Counted from the first letter of the stretch, positions 1,643 to 64,000 are shown. The stretch is 64,000 bases of DNA from Amphiscolops sp. MND2022 (GCA_964187785.1 OZ076409.1:28088001-28152000), one strand, 5' to 3'. Made by a program: numbers and translations. The notes: generated by a model not told the origin, from the sequence alone.

Positions 1643-2136
1643 AGTCGGCGCCTTTTCCCTTAAGGAAAAAAGCCCGACTATTACAGTGAGTAGTTTTTTT
1701 TTCAGTTGACAATCTCACTCTGAGTGGTCCACTTTTTACAATTTGTTCATTTGTTCAACTTCGACCAATTTTCTGAACCCGGAGAGTGTGGGTTCGATTG
1801 TCGCACTAAACCATAAATTTTTTTATGCTTCCAAAAGTACAAGTGAGACCAAAGGGTCCGTCCCCCTTTGGGTTTTTTTCGGCACTATGCGACTTTTTTT
1901 GGAAATTTTCGAATTTTATCAAAGGGTACCCCCTTGCATTTTTTTGAAGTTTTAGGTTTTTAAAAAACGTTTAATGAGCCTAAATGACCTCTTATTGGGT
2001 TTTCGGCATTGTGCGACTTTTTCAACCAAATACTTTTTTTGAATGTTTTCAAATTTTTCCAAATGTTTCCAATAGTTGTTCTTGAATATTTTTGAGCCTT
2101 AGATATGGCGCCGACTTGGGAAGTTCCCGTCTTGTT
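1643..2136 (+). mobile_element. HINE/Helentron-like repeat
   Basis: AGTCGGCGC start; GCGCCGACT plus hairpin and TTGTT end. Confidence 0.75.
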
Positions 2137-3049
2137 TTTGATATTATTGTGTAAGCTAGGATACTGCATACTACGTATTTAAACGCTGAAAACCAACTAT
2201 TTGCCCTGTAATACCATCGCGATTTATAAGTAACAACTCCAGTTACTTATACAAGTAACACCAGTTAGTAAGATGGACAATTCTGACAGAAAACGAGCAC
2301 ATAATTGACTATTGACCAAAAATAGTTTGCTGAGACAAAAGCTTTCTAACAAACCTCCAGAGTAGTGAATGTTGAAAGTCTTGAAATTTTGCGAGCGTCC
2401 TTCTCGATTTCATTTAAAATGTCTTTCACGTAACAAAGCTTCAAGTACAAGATTTGGATGCTTCCAGTGAAAGCTGCTATGTGCTTCTGAAAACATTTTT
2501 AAAATAAGGTTGTCTTGAGATATCGGTCTGCAATGGAAGGGATTAACTTGTATAAATTCGTTTTTATTTTGTTGCGGATATCAAGATTTAATACCGATTT
2601 TTTTTTGGAATTCCATTATATATTCTTTAACATTTTATTTGGAATTATTACTCAGCCACAAAGTGGCCGATTCCATTCAATATCCTGAGCTATTGAATTC
2701 TTGAGAATGGAGCGCCAATTTAGTCGTTCCCAGTTCATGTGGATCTATACCGGAGTGTTTTTCCCGAACCAAAACACTCAAAATTACTAGTTTCAAAAAT
2801 AGCCTTTTCAGTGTCAGCTGCCCGTTGTAAAATTTAACCTTAAAAAGGGCAAGACTGGAAGTATCCCAGTACCTGTCGGGATTCTTGTTTTTGTTTGTCA
2901 CGACTTGTCATGATTGACCAACTTGCGATTTAACTGCTGCAGCACATGACACTGTAAAGTCTTTCTTAACATTGACATTCCTGCTGGGCATTTTCCAAAT
3001 CGTTTACACAATGCGCACAATTCGGAGTCAACACACGAAATGAGGGGGG

Positions 3050-3551
3050 AAGTAAATAACTTCTAAATAAATAACTTCTAATTAATATAGTAAACAACTT
3101 CTAAATAAATAAGTTCTAAAATTATTTTAGTAAATAACTTCTAAAATGCAATGGCATCTAGTAAATAACTTCCAAACAGCTATTTTGACGTAATTATTTC
3201 TATAACGTCGTTAGCTATGTTCACATACCCCTAGTGCCCTAAATGCAGGAGCGAAGCGACGTGCCATATGGCCATGCCTCAATGTTGCTACTTGGCGAAG
3301 GGAGCGAAGCGACGGGACGAGCCATACAACAAATATGCTAATCTTTTCAAATAACAGTTTTCGGAATAATAGAACGGTAAGTTTATTTTCGGAATAATGG
3401 AACGGTTAATTTATTTTCGGAAGAATGAATAGCAATCTTTACTAGAATGATTTCAGAAGTTACCAGACGCAAATGCATTTTAGAAGTTATTTACTAATAT
3501 AATTTTAGAACTTATTTATTTAGAAGTTATTTACTAATATAATTTTAGAAC
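3050..3551. repeat. palindromic element with TAGTAAATAACTTCTAA arrays
   Basis: Direct arrays on the left are mirrored by TTAGAAGTTATTTACTA arrays on the right. Confidence 0.7.
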
Positions 3552-6500
3552 TTATTTATTTAGAAATTATTTACGTGATCCGAAATGAGTTTGACAGCCT
3601 CTGTAGAGCGATTATCTGTTTTTCTAAGGCTTGTCTTCAAATTAATTTCTTTTGCGGCCTTCTTCAAAGACTTCTTTTGTACGTTAGTGTTTGTTGTTTG
3701 GCTTCCGAATAGTGTCCAAATTGAAAACAAGAACAGCAAACGTGCAATTTTAATAATTTGCTGACTCAAAATATTTGATTTGCGGTTAAATCTCATCAGA
3801 CAGACGTGTATGTCAAAACATTGGAAATTTCTTGTAGATATATTTTCATGATTGAGCTCAATATGTTTCTCTGAAAGGTTCACCTATCAGCTATTCTGCT
3901 CACGTAGTATGTTTTTTTGTTTTGCCGGTTGAATTATCTTTTTAAAAAGTTTTCTTTCGGCCCAAAAATTGAATTGCCGTTCTTCTAGGCTCAAATTATA
4001 GAATTGTATATATGCTTGAAAACTGTACATGTATTTTTGATTGTGGTATACATGTAGATTGACTATTGTGGTATAGATGACTGTAATAGCCATATAATTC
4101 CTTCAAATACTGACTGAATTCGTTCTTTGAATTCGACAGCAACAACGTGCCCAATTGACTGGTGGAATATTTTTGCTTCGAATAACTAAACGCTATATCA
4201 ATATTTGCTGTCTGTATCTTAAACGTAAATAAAGTCTATTGGTATGACATTTCTTAGATTTGGCATATACATGTATTATCGCTATAAGTCCTTATTTATG
4301 CTAGATGTTTGTTCTCGAATGGCATTTAACTTTTGGCCCAGTTTTTGTCCTTTTTTTCTTCATCAAAAATGCCGAAAACTTCCTGTTGGAACAGTTTTTC
4401 TCATTTTTAAATTTTCTGGCTTTCAACCAAGGTTTTCCTGGGAGATGATAGTGCTCAGAATCATTTGAAGGAAGCCGATTTTCGCGGTTTTTCTTTTATT
4501 GTCGAGAAATTTTTGTGGCAGATTTTTTGAAAGCATTTTCCCAAGTATTGTAAAAGTTGCAAAATCTACTTAAACGGAAGAAGAAATTTTTGTTTTCCCC
4601 CGAACCCCTTCGCAATTTTTGTGTTTATTTTCTAAGAAAGTATTCCTAAGAAACTCTAACTCCTGGTCTTCGAATAAAATCTGAATTTTTGAAGAAGAAC
4701 CGTTTGAAAACCATGAAAGTACTCTAGTTCAAATGGAAGCCTCCAATAACCATTCCCTTTGTCAAATGTAGGTTTTTTTTAGTTTCCGCACATTTTTCCA
4801 TATGAAGAAAAACTAATTGTACCGCGTTTTCCCCTCATTTTGCCATGTTCCTATTTTATACTCAAGTGATAGTGCTCTTCCACAGTCTTCAACTACTACA
4901 AAAGTAGGTTCCTAGCATATATTTGTCGAGATATTTCAACTTCAAGAAAAAATGCCTGCAAAAAATCAATTTTTCCAAATGTCCAGTTTTCCGCCATTTT
5001 CATTTACCTTTTGAATGTCTCTAGAGATTAGAATATCCACTAAGTTCAACGACTAAATAATTGTCTTTTCAACAAAAGAGATTTAAGATTTTTTTAGCAG
5101 TCTTTGAATGCTTTAGTGGTTATGAACATCCACGAAGTTTGAAGACAAAACAATAACTTTCTTAGCAAACTTTCGAAAGGAGATCCAATGTTTATCTTTT
5201 GGAAAGAGATCCGAATTTTATAGTTTCAAAAAAGCCTCGAAAGATCCAATAAAAATTACTAAAATGCAATTTTCGAATAATGTTTACGTGGGATAAGTCC
5301 CCACATAATTAAGCCTCGAAACAACTAGTAAGACAGCACGCTTTTTTTGAAGAGAAATGTGATGTTTTAAATTCGTTCCTCAGCGCAAGTTTTCCCTATT
5401 GAATTATATCTTGAGCCTTTGAAACCCTGAGCTGCACAGCGACTGTGTATTTCCCATGTTGTTATCTTCTTTTATTAAAAACACTTTCAAAAGCAAGAAA
5501 AACTTTTACCAAGTCTCATCAAGCTTTAATTAGGTTGTCGGTCTCAATGCACAACGTTTCAGAGCTTCAAAGAAGTTATTGTAAATTTCTGCTCTTTCAA
5601 AATTCTGCTGTGAAGAACAACGCTTTGTAGCTATTTCCTCCTTGTGCAGTTTACTGTACTGAGACGAGTTTTTACTTTCATAGTAACTGTAAACCTTTGA
5701 GGAGTTTTTGGAGTTATTACAGTAAATCCCCTGACTTGCGCTGTATGATGAAGATAGCTTTCCATTCTTTCATCGTATATAATAGCACTAGAAGGTTATA
5801 TGCCCATTTCAAAGGGTAGACTTACGCTTTCTTTTTGCAAATCTTTTGATGTCCTTTCATTCATCACTTATCTTTGCGATTGATCTGAAAGAAGAAGAAA
5901 AATGGGCCAATTGAAAGTGCCGGCTGCTTGTACTGGTGGTCTTGAAATATTCTTGAGAAATACTGAAATTTCTTAGGTAAAAGCAATATTGACAGGGAGC
6001 TAAGGTCAAGCACTATCAAACACGCACCGCAACACAATTCTCACTTTTTCTTCCCCTCTTCCAAAATTTATCATCCCGCATCATGTTAAAGCTAGAAAAA
6101 AGAAGCCTCCACTGTTCATTGACTTGAAGTTTGATACCGTTTCTTATATTTCTCACCTGTCTTTCATTTGACAATATCCCTGCATGAGTATCAGAGAAGT
6201 GGGGGGGGGGGGGGAATACCCGTCAGTACCGGGGTGCAGGGGAAGATATTTGTCGAAAGCTCAAAAAGCCTGATTTTGCTTAGCTAGTTTGGTCTTTTTA
6301 CTTTAGTAATGTTAGTAAAGTATCAAGACAAATCGAGATTTCGACACAAGGGGTTTTACACTTGATAAATACAACCAAACATAAAAACATAGTCAATCAA
6401 CAAAGCACCTTTGCGCCGTCATTTGGGATAATTTTCTTCACAACTGAAGATTTCAAAATCGGTCATTGAGGTCAGCCCTTGTTTATTTCACTTTTCAACA

Positions 6501-6859
6501 AATCCATAAAACTAAATCAGGCAGATTTGTGCTAGCCTCATTCAAAGACGGCGAAATGCAAAAAGAATGTTTTTCGGACATCAAAGCTTCCCAAATTAGC
6601 GAAATCTTGAAATTGAGAATTAGCGTAAACAACCTCTGGGCGCTTATCAGTGGTAGACTCCCATAATCACTTTGGTCGCCTCTTTAAACATGAGTGAATT
6701 GTTCACATTGGGTGCTAATGAGAACATTGACTTCGTTCCGGTCAATTGAAATTCTTCCCAGTGAAACGTGCACTCTCACATTATCCAAAGCAAAAACAAT
6801 TTCCTTATGGAATTATAAAAGCTGTAGACGGTGAAGCTGCTTCAAGAACAAAGTTGATA

Positions 6860-7040
6860 CAGTCGGACCTCGTTATAACGAACCATCGATACAGCGTAAC
6901 TCTCGTTATAACGGAATTTGATTTCTAAACCAATGGAAATCAAGTACACACACAAGTACAAAAGTATTCGAAACAGCGTAAACTTTTAAAGTAATCAATG
7001 AGATACTCCCCGAGAGGTGTGGTAAACCGAGGTCCGACTG
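6860..7040. mobile_element. pogo/Tc1-type MITE
   Basis: TIR CAGTCGGACCTCG / CGAGGTCCGACTG with TA TSD. Confidence 0.85.
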
Positions 7041-7893
7041 TATTGAGCACTGACCAAATAATTATGAATTTCCAGTTGTAGACTTGGCTATACATGTTTC
7101 AATTTTATCCTTGAAGAAAATGCTTGTTTCTCCAAAATTAATGTTCATTAATGAAAAAGAGTCAGTAAATCCCTTTCTGATAAAATTGTGTAATTGAAAG
7201 AATCTGCTATAATGGCAGCTGTTGATGAAGCCATGAAAAACGGAATTGAAAATCCGTTGATTCATTAGTTGGGAATTGCTTTGAATAATTGAAAGTAGAT
7301 CCCTGGTTATTCCGAGAATCCAGGAGAAGTGCAATTAAACCATATTTATTTTGTTCATCAGGTTCAATACTTGCACTTGAACTCAGTGTGCACATCGATT
7401 GAGAAAAAATCCATTTGAAATTAAGAAGCATGATTGTTACGGATTAGTTGTGGTAGAATTGAACTAGTTCAATTAAAAACATGAATTAATTTACGACTAG
7501 TTAATAAATAAATAGATACCAGTAAATTAATGAAAATTATGATTGTGAATTTCATCAACAGCTTCGAAAATCTTTTGATTCCATTTTTTCAAAGATGACA
7601 AAAGTGCCGGCCGGGTGTGTAGTTCATAGTTTGATGTCGAGAAGTTGATATTTGCGAGAAAACTAAATTTTCGATTATTGCTCTTAAGTCGCTTATTTGA
7701 AAACCTAATGGAAGTGGTGGTTTCAAAGTTTTAGATTTCAAGGAGACTATTAGAGTTCTTTACTTTCTGAAAATCATTTTTCACCTTCACAAATAAATGT
7801 ACAAATGTGGTTTTGATTAAGTTTTCTGTTGCTAATACGTTCCTATGCGTGGTTCTCTATTTCGTCCAGTGTTATGTGTCATCTGCTTCGTAG

Positions 7894-8355
7894 CCTACAT
7901 GAAGCTGAACAGTCGCACTTATTACAGCATCACTGCATACAGTTTACCACAAAACTCGGCCACATTCGGAGCTCATGGACTGCCGCCTCACCTCGGTGTG
8001 AACGGAGGCTCTCAAGGGCGGCGGCACCCGTACCCGTCGTCGTCATCTGAAGTAGGGGGTGCCGGACCCAGCAAGCAAATAAAGCGGCTGCACCATCTGG
8101 CTTTTGTCAGCTCAGTTTTGGCACTATTGCATCATATCTTATGTCATTTCATGTTCGCTTTACTTTATTGCGCAACCACTTTCATCAAAGCGGATTACCT
8201 GTCCCACACATATGGCAGTGGGGGTTCCATGCCCAGCGGTGGCTACGTGCCGGAGGTCGCTGCTGTTGCCCAGTCGCAATTGTCATTACAGTCATCCTCT
8301 CTCGTGTCTGCCACCACGCCATTGACATTTCAACAAGCACAGCCGCCACATCCAG
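7894..8355 (+). CDS. FRMD4-like gene, upstream coding block (may contain a short intron)
   Basis: GC-rich coding-like part of ORF 7845..8399 after a tag acceptor. Confidence 0.55.
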
Positions 8356-11300
8356 GCACGGCAGCATTCGCAAAAATTACATTAAAAATGCTATTTTGAT
8401 CACATATTTCAATGTTGATAGTTTAAAATGAGCCAATTTTTATTTGTGGAACGAGTCGAATAGTATAATGTTTACCAAGAAAATTTTAAAAATGGAACAT
8501 ATAATTTGTGCTTGTGTTCAACATTTTCAAGATTTCGTGAACCCAAAAAAATTGCTCATTTTTGGGTATCTCATTAAGTTGATTCTATTTTTGTGATGCC
8601 TGCTTCCGTGTACCAGGCGTAGCTGGGGCCTCTGCGATTCTGTTCAAAGTGTCTCCTCCTTCTTACGACTACAACTCTGACCAGTTGTTCATGCAGAGGA
8701 CTTTCGTTGCTCAAAACAAAGACTTTTCTCTGGCCTTGGCTCTGACCGTCATGGAAGTTATTATTCATTGGTGCCAATCTTGGGTGGTTTACTTGTGGAA
8801 AAAACCCTGTTGTTATTTCGCAGAGAAACTTCCCAGGTTCGAAAGCGTGCAGTATTGTCATGCCAATGTGTCAATTGGGCAAATGAAATCATGTTTGTAA
8901 TCTGAAGGCAGCATGTTTTCCTATTTAATACCCCAAGAAATGTCAAAACCGGCGACCTTTCCGAGGGTTTCATCGAACTGGAAATAGTTTCGAAGCTTTT
9001 CGAGTTAGAAGATAACTGGCGAATTGAAGTGATACGAACGATTACAATCATTGTCCGTTTTTCGATGCGCATACTGTAAAAAAATTAAAATACACTGGAG
9101 TTCAGTGTTCCAGGTATGACCGAAAGTGTGTTAGATTTTGGTGTGTAGACTGATGATGTAATGTGAGGAGAAAACCTAAATTGGCGACGTATATTTCAAA
9201 GCCATGGGAATGACTTTGATTCGATTCAGTCCATTCAAATTTTGAGTTGCGTCGATGAATGGTGTAATTAGCAAGTGTCACATATAATGGTGGCTTCAAT
9301 TATCCTGATTGAATTAGCTGCCGGTTCGTGCGTGTGCGTAAGGGCTGTTGGCATATCCATTTGATAATTCTGGTTGCTTTTGTTTTCATTCGTAGTGAAA
9401 TCATCAATTCCAACACATTTAGCCAATGTTATTTTTTGCCACAGTGATGTAACACTACACTGTTATGATTCTCTCTATACACCAGTAGACTGAAAATTGA
9501 AACATTGACAATCATCACATTTCCATTTGTGAATTAAAATGGAGTTTGAAATGATTGAATGCTTTGGTTCCGTCAAAATTTGGTCCTCTGGGCTTGAAAC
9601 GGCACATTACCACTCCGCTTTGTCCCTGCTTTGAATGTCTGACAGCACTATTCACGTTTAAAAAATCAGTTTCAAAAAGTTTCCGAATTGTATTTTGATG
9701 TGATATCGCTATTTTGATTAGCTGGAATGTGACTCCTGGAATTGTGAAAACACATTGCAAATTGTCATTTTGAGTTCACATTAATCCCTTCCTATTTTTT
9801 TGCTACAATGAGAAAACGAAACTACGGAATTGGAATTGAAAGTCTTGCATTTGAAGATTTCTTCGTGTTTAATATCTATTTTTGATTTGAATGAACTAAT
9901 TCATGTTTCGCACCTGTGAGTGAGATTGAATCACATCATCCTCCAAAGCTTTTCAGAATAACATGAGGAAGATCTAGCCCATCGAAAATAGTCATGTTTT
10001 TTATTTCAATCTTTCTCGATCTAGGAAAATTTTCTCGAATTTTGTTTTTAAAAATCTATTTTTGTAAGTCAAAATACAAAACATGACCGTATAGAAAGAT
10101 GTTGAAAAAGTCATTCATCAATCATCCCGTAAAACAAACGGGCTCAAGATTCAAAATCCTTGCGCAACTCCAGGCGGTGTGATTACTGGACGCAGCTGAA
10201 AGTTATATGTGGCTAAGCTCTGCGTGAAACGTTTCCTTTGACTCCAGGAGACTGTTATTTTGAACCTGGTTAGGTTAAGAACGTTGTTGGAAGAAGATTG
10301 GTGCCCAATTGACACTTTTGTCCAGCGAAGAGAAAAACATATACGACGAGGCTGGAATCATAAAAGGATTGCAGATATTTTTCTTGCCTTTAATCTCTCT
10401 CATCATTTTCTCGAGCGGAGCCACTTCGCTGGCCTTCGAAAAGAATCTGAACGCTTGCCATGCTTTCATTGTCGCTTTGTGGTTGTCGACCTTAATGTCA
10501 ATTCCTTTCCTCATGGCCCTTGTGCTATTGCCCATTTACTTCTGTCTCAAAATATTCGCCCATTTGCTCAAAATTGCCATTCAGTGACCAATATTCAATG
10601 ACCACTTTGGTAGTACGAGTCTCAAAGACCTTCTTTTGAGCTGGCGTTGACTTGAGAGCCACGTGAAAAGACCTAACTTCCTACCTCCCATATTGATCGA
10701 GCGACGCGACAATCAGTTCAAAGCAGTTCAAGAACACCCTCACTTTTTACTGAGAAATAGTTGGAAACAAACTTCAAAGTTAAATTTATTGATCCTAATT
10801 TTATCATTAGCCAGTTACAATTTATTTTTTATAAACTAATGGTGTCTTTTCTATTACAGAGCCACTATGCTGGTTACCGCATGCAATGTAAAGCATTGTT
10901 CGTAGTTAGGGCAAAGTACCTCGATCAGAATCTTTGACATGTATATTGTTTTATTGATTAATTCAAAACATGAAAATGTTCGGAATTTTAAAATATACTT
11001 TCGGAAATTTTTATAAACGATTTTATTGTGAAAAATTATGTGGAAATGATAGATACTTTTTTTTAAAATTCATTAGCAACATTTTTGCAGTTGTAGAAAT
11101 ACTAGTGTTCCTCGAAAGGGCCAATTTTCAGTGGTATGATAGCTATACCCTTTGTAACACAGCTAATTTATGTCCTACTGTCAAGTTTATTATTTTTCAT
11201 GTTGGAAGCAAATGTCTGTAAAGAAAAGAGGGAAATTGATAATGTAAAATATTTGGAATTGTTAGGTTCTAGAGTGTAACAAATTACCATTTCCAAGTAT

Positions 11301-34993: not shown

Positions 34994-54846
<19,853 letters not shown>

Positions 54847-56481: not shown

Positions 56482-58101
56482 TGAAAGAAATTAGATTCAG
56501 GAGATTGAGATAGTTTTACTTCTAATTGGAAGCTTAACAGAAAAAAGGTTGTTTTAGTGAGTTAGCCTTTTCTTTTGTAGTTACTGACAATTACCTCCAG
56601 TTGTTGCTTTTTCGGCTCACAACTATCAACTCGCGAGAAATCATCTTGCAAAATTGCAATTGAATATGAAGATGATTGCAGTTGAATGTATACACGTAAT
56701 ACTATCTACAATTTCCAGGGAGAGTACACGACCACAATCGAATCCGCGACTCAGCCATGTACGTTAGGCGCAGTTCAATCTTGTCAAAGCTCCGACTTCA
56801 ACCAAATCGCAATACCCGGACTTGTTAGCAAATCTACTATGAGCTAGCGACAACACAATCTTCTAGAACAGTATGTTGCCTCCGCGAGACTCAACATTCG
56901 TCTAGCTCTCCTACTCGGGGGTCTCTTTAATTTTCTTTCGATCCTGCCTCAATTGTGTTTATTCATCACCCGCGTTTTTGGTGACCTCATCTTAACATTC
57001 TATCATACTTGACGTTCACAATACTGGGCGTCGGCATCTGAAGTTTGCATGCCTTTACCTTCATGTGTACCTATTCCTTTATGGCGTAACGAACACCACT
57101 TGTTATACTTCGCTAAGCGTTCATTACCGTCAACGACAAAGAAATCATCATCTTGTCCGATCTCCACATTCTCTCATAATTCAAGTAGCCCAAGATAATT
57201 CTAATGTCGCGAGATTTTCTCAAAGACCTTCAATTATATGGTTTACTAGTTTGCTACAAGTGAGAGATACTTTTCCGTCATTCTAAGTGCAGTGCATCGC
57301 GGATCTTTTCGCCTGACTGAAATGCGAAAAAATATTGTGCAAAAACATTGATTTTAAGGTACCTTTTCCAATCTTTTCAGGGGTGACCCCTGCGACGACC
57401 TTGAGGTTCATCCGTGATATTGAAGTTTTTTGTACTCATCCAAAGTTGCTACATGCCAAGTTATGTGATCTAGGGTCAATGGTTCTCGCGTTACGTGAAG
57501 TGCGTATGGTTTGTTTACTTAGAGCGGTTATCGCGCATGTGTTACAAATAAAGGTTCCTCCGCTGTAGTAATCGACTACACTCGTTATTGTGGTTCGTTT
57601 AAGGTAATACAATCCAAGGTCGAATGTCTTTTATTGGACGGGCCCGCGTGCCTTAAACAAGCAATGCTCAGCTCGTCATGGGCGGTTTAATGTATGTTTC
57701 ATGTACTTAGGGTTGATTGATGAACATCCTAAGCAAGTTTCATGATTTCATGATACGCAGGTCAAAGGATGGTGATTTACATAACCTTCGGTGTTTATTT
57801 ACATAGTGTCCGTGCACTTCCGCGCGTCGTAGGATACCGATAATTTTCGCGAACGGCCTTATATCCTATGTCCTATCAATTCCATATATAATATGGCTAA
57901 TTGTCTGCTTCCCTGACGTTTTCGTTAGGGGGTCGACCTACCTCACTTTCGGTGCTAATAGCTGGGGGTCTAGGCCGCCTTTTCAGCTGCTTTTAGTAAT
58001 CTGGTGGTCTAAAAAGACAATGAACATTGTTCCGTCTAAGTTCCGGGCTTCGCGCAATATCATGGGCTTTCCATAGACACCAAAAGTCTAAAAATTATAC
58101 A
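56482..58101 (-). mobile_element. solo LTR related to the 37353-39001 LTR
   Basis: Reverse-complement similarity along its length, TG/CA ends, 5-bp TSD GAAAT (56477-56481 / 58102-58106). Confidence 0.85.
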
Positions 58102-60007
58102 GAAATTTACTTTCAAAGGTTTTTGTGATGTGGTGTCAGAAAAGGACCCTGACTGATTTCAGGAAATTGCTATTAAGTGAATGACTAACTTTCTTTTTAA
58201 AATCAACTTCCCTCTTCATCTTCTCATGTTGAGTGGATGTGTCACCGTATCTTGTTGCGATAGCTATTCTGAAGAAACTCCTATTAAAATAGCTTGAAGT
58301 TTTCACATGTGTTTTTAGGTTGCTAACAACCGTTTTTATAGTTTAAAATTTTAACCTAAATTTTTTTCCTGGTTTTCAATTTTTTTTGAAGCTGCATGAA
58401 GAATCCCGAACCTGGCTACAATTCCAAGCCTTGAGGCTGTACACGTGCTTGAAGAGCCAAGAAGGCTCATCTCGTGTCCAAATTGAATGTTAAAACTTCT
58501 GAAATATTTTTGATGGTTTTATTTTTCTACCATCATTCAGTTTCTTTCTTGAAGTTTTGTCGATTTCATTTTTAAAAAAGATCTATTCTTGAAGGCCACA
58601 AAGAATTTCCAATAGAAAATACTTCCTAGAAAATTTAAACTGCAACTAGCGTCACTTCGACGTGCTATTTTAGTAGCAGTGATTTCATCAGATGAGAAAT
58701 CAAAGTGTGAAAACAACGTGATCGTCTCGGTAATTTTCGATTTACCACCAAACGCTTACTGGCCTTCTAACTATTATTTTAAAACGTTGCATTTTCGTAT
58801 ATGAGTTTAATGCAACTTCTTGTCAGTTTTCTAATGCATTCACACGATTTCATTTTGAAATAGCATGAAAATACTCTATAGATTTGGAAAATTTTGGTGT
58901 CTTTAGCTGTTTCACTGTTTTTTGGGTACTTTTTATAGGCATTGTCCCAGGCGTCCGCCTGTGATGGAAATCTTTATACAATCAGTCACGACTACAGGAA
59001 GGCGCAGCCCAACACCCTCCCACTGAATTAAGTTTTACAAGCAAAACTATATTTGTTGCTTTAAAAAGTCATGTAAAACTCTATATATTTCATTTTGTAC
59101 AAGTTATATTATGTAATTCTATGTATTAATACGAGTTACTTGGACACCAAGGCGTACAGGTAAAGGAAACGCGTTCAAATGTTTTCTTGCCTGTCGCCTT
59201 GGTCCGCAAGTCCGACTAACTCGTCATCCAATCATAGCGCAGTGTTATGTAACCTTTACTCGTGCTAGCTTAATAGATTAAAGGACTAGACAGCTATATG
59301 CCGCCTGCTAATAAAGCGCCGGGCTGTACCAGTCTATTGGACACTGAGTCCGCGCTTTAATTGAGAGTGCTATTCTATCTAGCAGTACTGGTTATGTAAT
59401 AATTAATCTTTTGATAACTAATAAAAGGCGCTATTGGTCCTCAAAGGACTGATTTAATATTTTAGACTTAGTTTGATGGTGTTGCTTCATATGTAATTTG
59501 CGCAATATATTTAGTTTAGAATATATGTAAAATTACTATCTATACATGTAGTAAGCATTTCATACATGTAATATGTATTTCATACATGTAGTACGTTGCT
59601 CAGTATGCATGTAAGCAGTTGCTTGTCCTAACGGACTCATGGTCCCGCCGCCATATTTGCCGCCAAGAGGGACCTTTGATATATATGATGTAATGTTGAC
59701 ATATTTATTTACCTGCTACTTGCTATTTATAGATCTATAAAATCTACCTGCTATTTATAGATTGTAGCTATATTTAGAAAGCCCTTAAGGCTATTTTTAG
59801 AATATGATCACCATTTTATTGAGTGTCATGCAGATTCAAATATATATAACCGGGACTGGTGGTCCCGGGGACAGAATTATTCTGACGATACTTTGATACG
59901 TTACTGTTGCATTACTGTTGCGAACTGTTTATTAAAACTACCCGTTCATTTTCACTTTGCAAGCCCGAGATATTAATTTAAATTCTTGCCTCTTGCAATA
60001 ATCTCTT

Positions 60008-61501
60008 ATGCCTTCTACTAGACGTCAAAAGGCCAAAGCTAGGAGATCTAGAGAAATGGACATGCTGTCCGACTATGATAACCTAGATGTGATGCTGGGA
60101 AATGAAAATAATAATCCCATTGAAAGAGAACTAGCCGAAGTGATAGATCAGTCGTCGGCCCACGGGGACGATGATACAAACGTGTACCATGAAAATGAGT
60201 TCAGAGATTACTTACATGAAAATGAACCTTTGAGGCAAAACGAAGTCAGACAATCCTTTGAGGCCTTTTCAAGTGAGTTTAATCTTAGATTGTCTCAAGA
60301 AATGGAATCTATGATGTCAATAATGCATAGCCAAATAAATAGAGCTATAACAACAGCTATAGCTGAAAGAGTTATTCCAGAAATTCAGAATATTGCGAAC
60401 TCGATGTCCTCTATGGGACACAGGGACACTGAGGCCAGTTCGTCCCCAAATAGTCAGGAGAACAGGGAAAGCGCACCCGGGCCTAAAATAAAAATTGCAA
60501 AGAAAGATTCAAGATCTGTAGGTGACTTAAGAGATACCATGGGTCATGGTTCTTACATGGTGACAGGAGCTACCGACACCCAACCGCAAATTCCCGAATT
60601 TCTGACCGGACGAATCCACTCAATCCCGAACCTAGAGAGACAACAATCCACACACAATATCTCTCTGGACACGACTCTGCCAGCCCCGGCCCCAGAGGCT
60701 CCTGAACCTCCTCAGGACCCGTTTAATAGACTAGCCGACGTATTGGTCAATTTGCAAAACAAACCGCAATCTATGACCATCAGACCCGTACAAACAACCC
60801 CGATGACATTTGATGGGAAAAGTGAAAAATTTGAGCTCTTTGAGGACTTGTTCCATACGATGATCAAAATGCAGCCCACAATGTCAGAACAAATGAAAAT
60901 TAATCACTTTCATTCTTTGCTACAAAAGGGAGCATTACAGACATTCAGGAACATAAACTCAATCAACCGTCAAACTCTCGAGGACGTACTGGTCATATTC
61001 CGGAGGAAATATGTCAAACCGGAATCACAAGCAACGGCAAAGCATAAATGGCACCGATTGACCTTCGATCCAAGTACAATGAAACTACCAGACTTCTTGG
61101 AAGAACTGAACCAAGGTGCAGAAAAAGCATTTGGGGAAAACGCTAAAAGCATGATTGACAGCTTGTTATACGCGAAATTACCCCCAAAACTGAAACGATC
61201 TGTCAACATGGCCCGTCTGGAGAATGGCACGTATGAAGAAATAGTTGCTCATCTTGAAAGAGAACTGGAACTCAATGCATTAGAAGAGTCAGATGATCTG
61301 CCAATGGCCACTATGGCCTCGGCGTCCACGAGCCATAACAACTTACTGTCCAATGGTATCAACACAAATAAAGACGCCCAATGCTCATACTGCAAGGCGA
61401 CGGGTCACTATTACAAAAACTGCCCGAAACTCAAGAAGAAAAAGGAAACGGAGGACAAAGACGGTAAAAAAACCTCAGCGTCCAACTTACCCACCGTGTG
61501 A
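60008..61501 (+). CDS. gag: Gag-like protein (497 aa) with CCHC zinc knuckle
   Basis: FDGKSEKFELFEDLF capsid-type motif; CSYCKATGHYYKNC. Confidence 0.85.
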   Translation: MPSTRRQKAKARRSREMDMLSDYDNLDVMLGNENNNPIERELAEVIDQSSAHGDDDTNVYHENEFRDYLHENEPLRQNEVRQSFEAFSSEFNLRLSQEMESMMSIMHSQINRAITTAIAERVIPEIQNIANSMSSMGHRDTEASSSPNSQENRESAPGPKIKIAKKDSRSVGDLRDTMGHGSYMVTGATDTQPQIPEFLTGRIHSIPNLERQQSTHNISLDTTLPAPAPEAPEPPQDPFNRLADVLVNLQNKPQSMTIRPVQTTPMTFDGKSEKFELFEDLFHTMIKMQPTMSEQMKINHFHSLLQKGALQTFRNINSINRQTLEDVLVIFRRKYVKPESQATAKHKWHRLTFDPSTMKLPDFLEELNQGAEKAFGENAKSMIDSLLYAKLPPKLKRSVNMARLENGTYEEIVAHLERELELNALEESDDLPMATMASASTSHNNLLSNGINTNKDAQCSYCKATGHYYKNCPKLKKKKETEDKDGKKTSASNLPTV

Positions 61502-64000
61502 CACATGTGGCAAAAAGAACCACCCAATAATCAAATACAGCCAAACAATCAAGGATACAAAAGGAATTCCCACTGTTGTCTGGCAGCAACAAATGGATAA
61601 AGCCTGTATTCGAACTTATAAAATAGTACATAATGATCGCCCAGACCGATTTTACGAAATCGACTATACTAAAGACTTCGAGACTCAATTCCGTCCCTTA
61701 CCCTTGATCGAAGATTATCACCCTCATTACCCCGATCCTGATTACGGCAAAGACCCGTATTGGGACGACGAAATCTACGACAGACAAAAACTCCAGTTTA
61801 GACAAGACGAATATCCACCAACGGACGACGAGGATGATCCCCCGATAGTGGACAACAAACTATCCAGGGCCCTCATTGAACTTTGGCAGCCAAATTCCGA
61901 AGCACTGTTAGAAGAAATAGAGGAAACTCAAGAGCAAGAAGACTTTCAAGGCCCCGACAGCCTTTTAGACGAAACAGCCTTCTTGCACATTCTAGTGGAA
62001 AAACAAGGAGAACCGTCATACGTTCCCCTCTCCACCAACCTTGGCCTCAAAATCAAAAGGCGGATGCTATATTTCCCAATGGACTTTGGAGAACTAACAT
62101 TAGATGGTCTCGTAGACACTGGGGCCCACTACAGCGCGATACCAGAAGCTGACCTTAGGAAAATACGGCTACTTGCACCCCAATAAATAGTGAAAGAGGG
62201 TCCTGCCCCGTCATTCCAAATTATGGTCGCAAATGGAGACCTGGAAACTCCGAAGAGTACAGTAGAACTGAAGTTCGAAGTAGGGGACATAGAGTTCCAC
62301 GAAATCTTCATAGTGATGGAAAAGTTATCCAGCCCCATAATTGGACTTATGTTCTTACAAAGAAACCACACAGTCCTAGATATGCGCCAAGGCTTACTTA
62401 ACTTTCCCTTCTTCTCGATGCAATTGAAAACAGCTGACCATAAGTACTCCAATGTAATGGAACCTATCCTCAACCCCGAGGATATAACGATTCCGCCAAA
62501 TGGACGTACAATCATCCCTATCCAATCTCAAATTTATGCAGAAAACGCTGTCACTGGAATCTTACAACCCAGTGACCTTCTAAACGAAGAAAATGATATA
62601 ACATTTTGTGCCGCCATAGTCACACTGGACGAAGGGACTACGAGGATCCATGTCAACAACTTCACAGACCAACCCTTCAAACTCAAAAAAGGGATGCACA
62701 TAGCGAATTTCTCAGTGATGACTCCAGAGCAAATGAAACATGTTAGGCCAATAGACCCAGTGTCCACTTGGCACCTACTCAATGAAAATGAAGAAGATGC
62801 TATTTATTACATCAGTAGCCTTCTCAAAGCCAACAGGAACAATGACCAATACGAACAATACTGGTTTCCAACACCCGAAAACCCAGGGGACGAAGAGTCC
62901 CATACTCCAATACAAAAGAGAATTCTTAGAGAATTACGAAACCTGCAAGAAGCAGAAAAACTAAATCCACAAGACAATGAAGAATCTCGACAAAAATTCC
63001 TCAGTAATTTTGACTGGAAGGACTCAATGCTACAACAACATGAAATCAAACAGATAGAAGCGCTATTAGTCGAATTTCACGACATATTTGCCCGTCATAG
63101 GTTTGACATTGGTATGAATGAGGAGTTCACGGTCAAATTGACCCCGAAGGACGACTCTCCTGCCTACAGCCAGAGCTTACCAACTCCGGTCAATTTGAAA
63201 GAGGACATATTGGTCGAATTAGCGTCACTACACAAATATAGTATTATAACAACATTACCATTCTCAAAGTACGCTAGCCCTATCTTTGCACAAAAGAAGC
63301 CTAATGGGAAACTGCGACTACTGGTAGACCTCCGGAAGATCAACAATCTCATTTCTGACGACTATATCAACAACAACCATCCAGTCAGCACCTTAACGGA
63401 CGCTGCACAACATATGGCCGGAAAGAAACTTTTCTGTAAGCTTGACTGTTCGCAAGCGTACCACTGCCTTCAAATGGCGGACCAACGGTCTATAGAGATG
63501 TTGGCCTTCAACTTTGCCAGCCGAACGTTTGCATATCGAAGATTGGCCCAAGGTCTCAGTAGAGCCTTATCGGCATTCTCCAGTTTTATGAGAGAATATT
63601 TGGACCGTGTCATCAAAGCCGATCAATGTGCCCAATACGTGGATGATATTGGCATCGCGGCCAACGACGCTGAGCATCTCATTAAAAATCTCAGAGCAAC
63701 TTTCGAATGCATCCGAGAGGCTGGATTGAAATTAACGATGCATAAATGCCACTTTGGAGCAACTGAGATTGATTTCTTAGGAAGGACAATCACCCCTGAG
63801 GGCGTCAAGCCCCAGAAGGAACGAGTCATACAATTCCTAGAAAAAACGAAATTCCCAAAATCCAAAAAAGCCTTACAACGTTACCTCGGATTCCTTAATT
63901 ATTATAGAAACTACATACCGAGGTTATCAGAAAAATTAGTCCCTTTCTTTCAACTATTAAAGAAAGACGAAAAGGTCTTAGTCACAACGGAATTGATTGA
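61473..64000 (+). pseudogene. pol: pol (protease, dUTPase-like spacer, reverse transcriptase) with an in-frame TAA at 62184
   Basis: LVDTGA protease; KKPNGKLRLLVDLRKIN, KLDCSQAY, RRLAQGL, QYVDDI, KCHF, FLG RT motifs; open from 62187 to the window end. Confidence 0.9.

Follow-up and report, generated by a model that had tools for sequence, protein, structure and literature searches.

In the usual layout of Ty3/gypsy elements gag starts after the primer-binding site (PBS). MMTV sag and HIV nef, two open reading frames encoded by LTRs, are located in U3 and constitute separate genes whose expression comes from the 3′ LTR. Retrotransposon Ty1 has a 53-nt 5′ UTR and its PBS lies at RNA nt 95-104, as given in the available text of PMC5454406. 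It was also reported, in the accessible portions of PMC13709905 and PMC4551931, that truncated Gag restricts Ty1 via the C-terminal part of the capsid.

The window, i.e., the whole stretch of 64 kb that was analysed, carries, with a probability that we put at about 0.8, the 5′ end of a gypsy-type LTR retrotransposon, in which gag begins 183 codons before the LTR-terminal CA and reads through the PBS; the LTR part likely belongs to a long U5 and likely constitutes the N-terminus of one Gag. The sequences of the window and of its relatives establish the frame, the junction, the nucleotide conservation of this junction across families and the existence of copies that stop at it. The arrangement holds across a gypsy-type lineage, in which ~114-223 Gag residues, differing in length and partly unrelated in sequence, are LTR-encoded, an extent that the initial annotation missed. 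The features of the locus are as follows:

58955..58959, + strand: candidate target-site duplication CCGCC (from sequence; the 3′ LTR lies beyond the window)
58960..60557, + strand: 5′ LTR, 1598 nt; right end well supported by relatives, left end putative
59841..59849, + strand: TATA-like box, with a predicted transcription start at ~59870
59931..59936, + strand: candidate poly(A) signal ATTAAA, which would give a short R and place the ORF in U5; order as in the relative L002
60008..61501, + strand: gag ORF, 497 aa (most close relatives 560-562 aa), frame change near 61470
60008..60556, + strand: LTR-encoded N-terminal 183 codons; basic start, long predicted helix, disordered linker
60182..60415, + strand: predicted long helix, residues 59-136, pLDDT 94-98 over residues 81-130
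60556..60557, + strand: LTR-terminal CA, the A being the first base of Met184
60558..60569, + strand: 12-nt putative PBS TGGTGACAGGAG, read as (M)VTG and the first base of the next codon
60809..61201, + strand: capsid-like Gag core, DUF1759 and weak Retrotrans_gag (Pfam)
61379..61429, + strand: first CCHC zinc knuckle, seen in the sequence, below the Pfam cut-off
62079..63998, + strand: pol with aspartic protease, dUTPase-like domain (62475-62729) and reverse transcriptase (63294-63791), running off the window

Translation of the copy at the window gives the 497-aa gag ORF at 60008-61501 (+), within which TCTTACA/TGGTGACAGGAG (the slash marks the LTR end) is read at 60551-60569, at gag codon 184. 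Upstream of the junction lie 183 codons and one base of gag, and the LTR-terminal A together with the following TG forms the in-frame ATG at 60557-60559, i.e., Met184. The ORF, the junction and this composite ATG had been reported in the initial annotation and their coordinates proved correct when the sequence was re-read; the reported TATA at 59841 is also there (TATATA at 59841/59843). One other CA-TGG occurs upstream, at 59638-59642, but the homology of the element extends far beyond it. There is no ATG between 59860 and 60007, and 60008 is the first one after the TATA box. Against the proposed reading, the context of this ATG looks weak and Met17/19 is the called start of many short relatives. 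The copy is defective, since the gag frame change near 61470 loses a second knuckle kept by relatives and pol contains an in-frame stop at 62184-62186, in the aspartic protease.

The left end of the LTR is putatively placed at 58960, where TGTGATGG gives an LTR of 1598 nt; TGTGA is the best candidate for the start, as it mirrors, in inverted orientation, the TCACA with which the LTR of L002 ends. Contig pieces from sequencing runs, 95-99% alike, cover 59004-59790, thus the repeat reaches at least 59004; the two runs, each used in a small share, gave scattered pieces, and the parts left uncovered are uninformative. A start at TG 59072 was not preferred, as a contig piece runs through 59004-59155, and the upstream candidates TG 58821 and TG 58706 were not preferred to 58960 either. 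In run X2 the match of one contig breaks at 60557, a weak sign (single contig, depth 2, 80% threshold). A single low-depth record of this run joins the LTR end at 60557 to 61734, inside the element, which may reflect an insertion nested in the element or a copy with an internal deletion. The contig of one run lacks 59701-59746, and the putative U3 holds short tandem repeats at 59542-59601 (3 x 20 nt) and 59716-59762 (2 x 19 nt). Self-BLAST found no second copy of the LTR region within the 64-kb window, and the LTR boundary was tested via public protein relatives and the DNA of one relative, L002. Another repeat of at most 1.4 kb is present as three diverged copies (67-89%; 37575-38970, 43381-44558 and 56488-57894, one of them inverted), the last of which ends ~1 kb upstream of the LTR. 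Elsewhere in the window there are many dispersed repeats of smaller size.

The prediction put to the protein relatives was that 3′ and solo LTRs encode residues 1-183, then a codon starting with A, then unrelated sequence. The search with residues 1-183 yielded 729 clusters of 100-321 aa, and the best 120 of the 729 were inspected, anchored on residues 172-175: 98 match up to residue 183 and then carry foreign tails, 16 continue as Gag and 6 end early or are unanchored. Residue 184 belongs to the A-first class (I/M/T/N/K/S/R) in 96/98 of these foreign-tailed homologs from the best 120 clusters, vs a background of 0.43, and residue 185 in 42/90. In a replicate with 126 further cluster members the rule held in 86/86 foreign tails, while 9 proteins continue as Gag and 31 fall short of the junction. 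When P0166 (a frameshifted Gag) was removed and duplicate tails were collapsed, the pooled non-redundant set gave an A-first residue after 183 in 174/175 foreign-tailed relatives against 43% background (p ~1e-62), with residue 185 at background (77/158); the sole exception is a tail starting with Cys, seen twice. This is a statistical test, as S and R also have non-A codons, and only called ORFs are visible, which biases the set toward intact frames; the protein relatives checked are all ENA-derived. The tails show no relation to one another, with 2 similar pairs in a set of 69, and are likely derived from host DNA. Full-length and short proteins were also paired by equally long contigs, a proxy for the same contig; 20 of 21 picked pairs were scored and the identity of the LTR part was at least 98% in 12/20 and below 98% in 8/20, which fits 5′/3′ LTR pairs plus unrelated neighbours. 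It had been proposed in the initial annotation that the LTR ends at 60557 within gag and that the PBS is coding; the frames of relatives stop matching at exactly that base, and the copies stopping at 60557 that the proposal calls for are found as many protein relatives. The exact Gag of the window is absent from the protein collection, and no relatives were found in viral and prokaryote collections. Residues 184-185 of the tails (P0163-P0408) are skewed and the first flank base is rarely T, more weakly so in the second family; at residue 185 Tyr was counted 24 times vs 5 expected and Met 11 times vs 3 expected. This skew suggests a target-site preference at integration, compatible with a 5-bp site.

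The constraint on the junction can be seen as a nucleotide constraint through the protein. Among 120 full Gags M184 and V185 are invariant (120/120) and T186, G187 and A188 are found in 119/120, while residues 176-183 vary; residue 183 is Tyr in 106, His in 13 and Pro in 1. MVTG is contained in 32 of 147 distant representatives, 8 of which are called from MVTG; in the remaining 24 the first MVTG is always preceded by one of the NAY-coded residues Y, H, N and D (24/24), vs a background of 0.17. The residue after MVTG is GNN-coded in 29/32 and the following one is free. These residue sets are accounted for by NAC-A/TGG-TNA-CNG-GNG and not by protein chemistry, hence a PBS of 12 nt. A second family, with P0425-type Gag, has an N-terminus without significant similarity to that of the window. 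Its residues 1-189 retrieved 637 short clusters and, in the best 120 of the 637 inspected, 86 have foreign tails after xYH, 16 continue as Gag, 9 end early and 9 lack the anchor motif; the A-first rule holds in 85/86 foreign-tailed proteins from these best 120 clusters. This test is slightly less independent, for the anchor motif itself placed the junction and the 9 proteins without it were set aside. Tandem, partly decayed HMVTG-like junction repeats, with units 8-35 residues apart, are present in P0414, P0502, P0437, P0428 and P0444, as if the junction had been duplicated in replication.

The primer is probably a Leu-type tRNA: TGGTGACAGGAG matches at 11/12 bases a mammalian-cell tRNA-LeuCAG probe given in PMC3413118. 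No host tRNA was found within the window or the loci examined. RNA folding around the PBS is not more stable than that of shuffles (z +1.3).

The DNA of L002, a metagenome contig with 46% identity in the best segment, reads CCCTCACA/TGGTGACAGGAG at 129 codons and one base after the gag ATG, in the same reading phase. The 12 nt of the PBS are identical in L002 and the window, including three wobble positions, while a capsid control shares 8/26 codons. Along L002 the integrase end is succeeded by other ORFs over ~5.9 kb, a purine tract with TG 7952 behind it, TATA 9159, AATAAA 9295, ATG 9356 and CA 9743; provided that the contig represents a collapsed or tandem element, its LTR would measure ~1.8 kb. 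AATAAA is found in L002 only at 9295 and 9371, near the ATG, and there is none near the LTR end at 9743. The integrase, with H2C2, rve and p58_C domains, is the last part of pol. The ~5.9-kb region from the pol end to the LTR (2075-8031) is possibly a large accessory region of the element; none of its ORFs hit a Pfam family above cut-off. Four of these ORFs, 236-284 aa long, are antisense, and one of the four has a C2H2-like finger; a sense ORF of 244 aa crosses the purine tract into the LTR. Repeated CACGTG-rich palindromic units occur at 2083-2206 and 8178-8701, after pol and in the putative U3, and CCTCACA/TGG is present twice, ~39 nt apart, at 9736-9790.

Full-length-looking N-termini across families have 114-223 aa with 5-8 K/R in the first 20 residues. 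A family-1 profile detects P0447, P0410, P0427, P0418, P0414 and P0540 and misses the P0425, P0437/L002, P0461, P0497, P0502, P0498, P0442 and P0428 types, which points either to strong divergence of the extensions or to more than one gain of them. As to the reading frame, one of the three frames over CA-TGGTGA is closed by TGA and all families use the same open frame; this use suggests that they share an origin, in which the frame was perhaps extended upstream, starting from the junction ATG. Block-wise conservation among five family-1 relatives (24-28/31 for residues 1-31 and 5-10/25 for residues 51-75) suggests protein-level selection on the LTR-encoded part; the mean BLOSUM excess is seen in close relatives only (0.40 and 0.36 vs -0.28 neutral), distant relatives being not above neutral (-0.05 to -0.31). 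The initial annotation described a basic/helical N-terminal domain, and the basic N-terminus is accompanied by a long predicted helix. The AlphaFold model is of low confidence overall (pLDDT 65, pTM 0.31), with one confident long helix and a predicted disordered linker before the junction. Fold searches of PDB and viral libraries gave nothing for the LTR-encoded domain at E<=0.001, and it has no Pfam hit above cut-off; the Atlas gave no usable hit for the domain of the window and two low hits (0.78, 0.77) for the second family. Prediction of a two-copy complex of residues 58-140 scored 0.01, which is no answer either way. Judged by its basic tip, modelled long helix and flexible linker, the domain would most likely be a nuclear-targeting or RNA-binding and oligomerising module for Gag.

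In the proposed cycle transcription would start near 59870 and translation would begin at the first ATG, 60008. Priming at 60558 by a host tRNA with the 3′ end ...CUCCUGUCA-CCA would give minus-strand strong-stop DNA of ~690 nt. The RNA 3′ end would be cut after ATTAAA 59931, with a short R and a U5 of ~600 nt, so that genomic RNA would hold the coding U5 once; the 5′ LTR must then ignore its own poly(A) signal. Reverse transcription would copy U5 into both LTRs, and each insertion would leave a 3′ LTR, in many cases reduced later to a solo LTR, that carries a promoter, a start codon and 183 stop-less codons; its read-out frame would run on to the first stop met in phase in the flanking DNA.

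The best surviving alternative, which we nevertheless consider unlikely, keeps the same boundary and puts the ORF in a very long R. RNA would then be polyadenylated after AATAAA 60334 or 60487, both ends of genomic RNA would contain most of the ORF, and solo LTRs would make a short polyadenylated RNA and no read-out. Both hexamers are canonical, the latter 65 nt before the LTR end, whereas the upstream signal is the variant ATTAAA; yet the residues under 60487 vary among subfamilies, L002 has no AATAAA near its LTR end at 9743, both of its signals being near the ATG, and such hexamers arise easily in an A-rich ORF (36% A).

Most likely the putative read-out frames are a by-product rather than a selected product. 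Their tails reach at least 50 aa in 23/175, and the median is 19 codons for representatives; clustering shifts members toward short tails and representatives toward long ones. As the length of the tails does not exceed what chance would give, nothing points to selection on them. It may be imagined that the lineage moved a Gag domain into the LTR, each insertion being a promoter plus a 183-codon cassette expressed with a random host-derived tail, and that a library of many hundreds of chimeric proteins poisons particle assembly by copy number and seeds new genes; this we hold to be unlikely. It is also unlikely that read-out proteins are selected, the LTR-only fragment binding full Gag and limiting particle assembly by copy number, like Ty1 p22/p18. 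Hundreds of LTR-only frames are intact (729 and 637 clusters, the best 120 of each inspected), but intact frames are expected of young copies, and cluster members have short tails, with a median of 8 and a mean of 11 codons vs a chance median of ~12. The predicted long helix would suit such binding, and truncated Gag restricts Ty1 (PMC13709905); however, the restriction of Ty1 uses the C-terminal domain of the capsid, which is absent from LTR-only fragments.

It is improbable that Gag starts at Met184, with the upstream frame encoding an LTR product of its own or being bypassed through splicing or a different start site. The context of ATG 60008 looks weak and 8/147 distant representatives are called from MVTG. 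The invariance of Met184, which seems to speak for this start, is uninformative on initiation, since Met is forced by CA-TGG. Moreover, the upstream frame stays open and in phase throughout the families seen, with >100 full-length Gags showing it, starts at the first ATG after the TATA box, and a 183-codon open frame would arise by chance in flanking DNA at ~4e-5. The view that 60557 is no LTR end and is an internal hotspot of recombination, insertion or splicing, for which one may cite the missing second LTR in the self-BLAST of the window and the tandem junction-motif repeats in some families, is very improbable and largely refuted by a break at one base, after NAC-A and abutting the conserved 12-nt TGG motif, across unrelated N-termini, by mutually unrelated tails and by the purine tract and TG 1.8 kb upstream in L002.

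On the preferred reading, with Gag starting in a long U5, the split between non-coding LTR and internal coding region is breached by about an order of magnitude more than in Ty1 and across several abundant families. This reading predicts that strong-stop DNA of ~690 nt is coding, that ribosomes travel over the PBS and that every transposition duplicates a protein domain. Each 3′ or solo LTR would offer chimeric ORFs a start whose base is known, thus making LTR gene birth and copy control by Gag fragments testable at hundreds of loci, and annotation will misplace such LTR ends or call read-out frames host genes.

As regards classification, the gene order gag, PR, dUTPase, RT in the window, with integrase last in L002, is that of Ty3/gypsy, and the accessory domains of the L002 integrase are gypsy-type. 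The LTR ends TG...CA, also a Ty3/gypsy feature, the CA being known from relatives and the TG at 58960 putative. Gag hits DUF1759 at cut-off, a domain common in BEL/Pao (Belpaoviridae), while RT matches Ty3 and foamy types: the best solved matches are a foamy-virus-type PR-RT (1.7e-25), Ty3 RT (1.1e-20) and 8r0s (3.3e-19). A dUTPase-like domain accompanies an RT that ranks the foamy-virus-type enzyme ahead of Ty3. Ty1/copia (Pseudoviridae) was rejected, for integrase is not located between protease and RT; PR is followed by dUTPase and RT, and integrase comes last in L002. Troyka, described in the available text of PMC12440569 with CG...CG termini and a 3-bp TSD, was rejected as well, the LTR here ending in CA. 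Odin and lokiretroviruses (retrovirus-sister RT, dual RNase H, env-like gene) were considered because the foamy-type RT ranked first; the window stops before RNase H, and the accessible part of PMC9040795 gives no PBS or dUTPase data on them.

With Ty3 the element shares the gag-PR-RT order, the RT match (E 1e-20), the terminal integrase of L002, TG...CA ends (the TG putative) and a putative tRNA-type PBS, but it differs in that gag starts 550 nt before the PBS and a dUTPase-like domain lies between protease and RT. Coding within the LTR is shared with MMTV sag and HIV nef, whereas the ORF here is downstream of the promoter, encodes the beginning of Gag and is not closed by a stop before the LTR ends. 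Truncated Gag forms from partial elements are likewise known as Ty1 p22/p18 and Drt2 (PMC13709905, in its available text); those derive from the C-terminal part of the capsid and are made from internal promoters or by a domesticated locus, whereas the putative forms described here are N-terminal, come with every LTR and have a random tail. No report of a domain-sized Gag segment within an LTR was found in the literature searched, most subscription papers, supplements and repeat databases being outside its reach. In Ty1, as in the window element, GAG starts in the 5′ LTR and the PBS is in coding sequence, ~13 codons downstream of the start (PMC5454406, available text), and an open frame leads from the LTR ATG through the PBS in both. 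Here there are 183 codons (~114-223 across families), a folded-looking domain rather than a few residues, gypsy-type order, a presumably different primer and an LTR of ~1.6-1.8 kb. The same logic is already known in Ty1, the LTR-encoded part of Gag here being domain-sized and present across a lineage.
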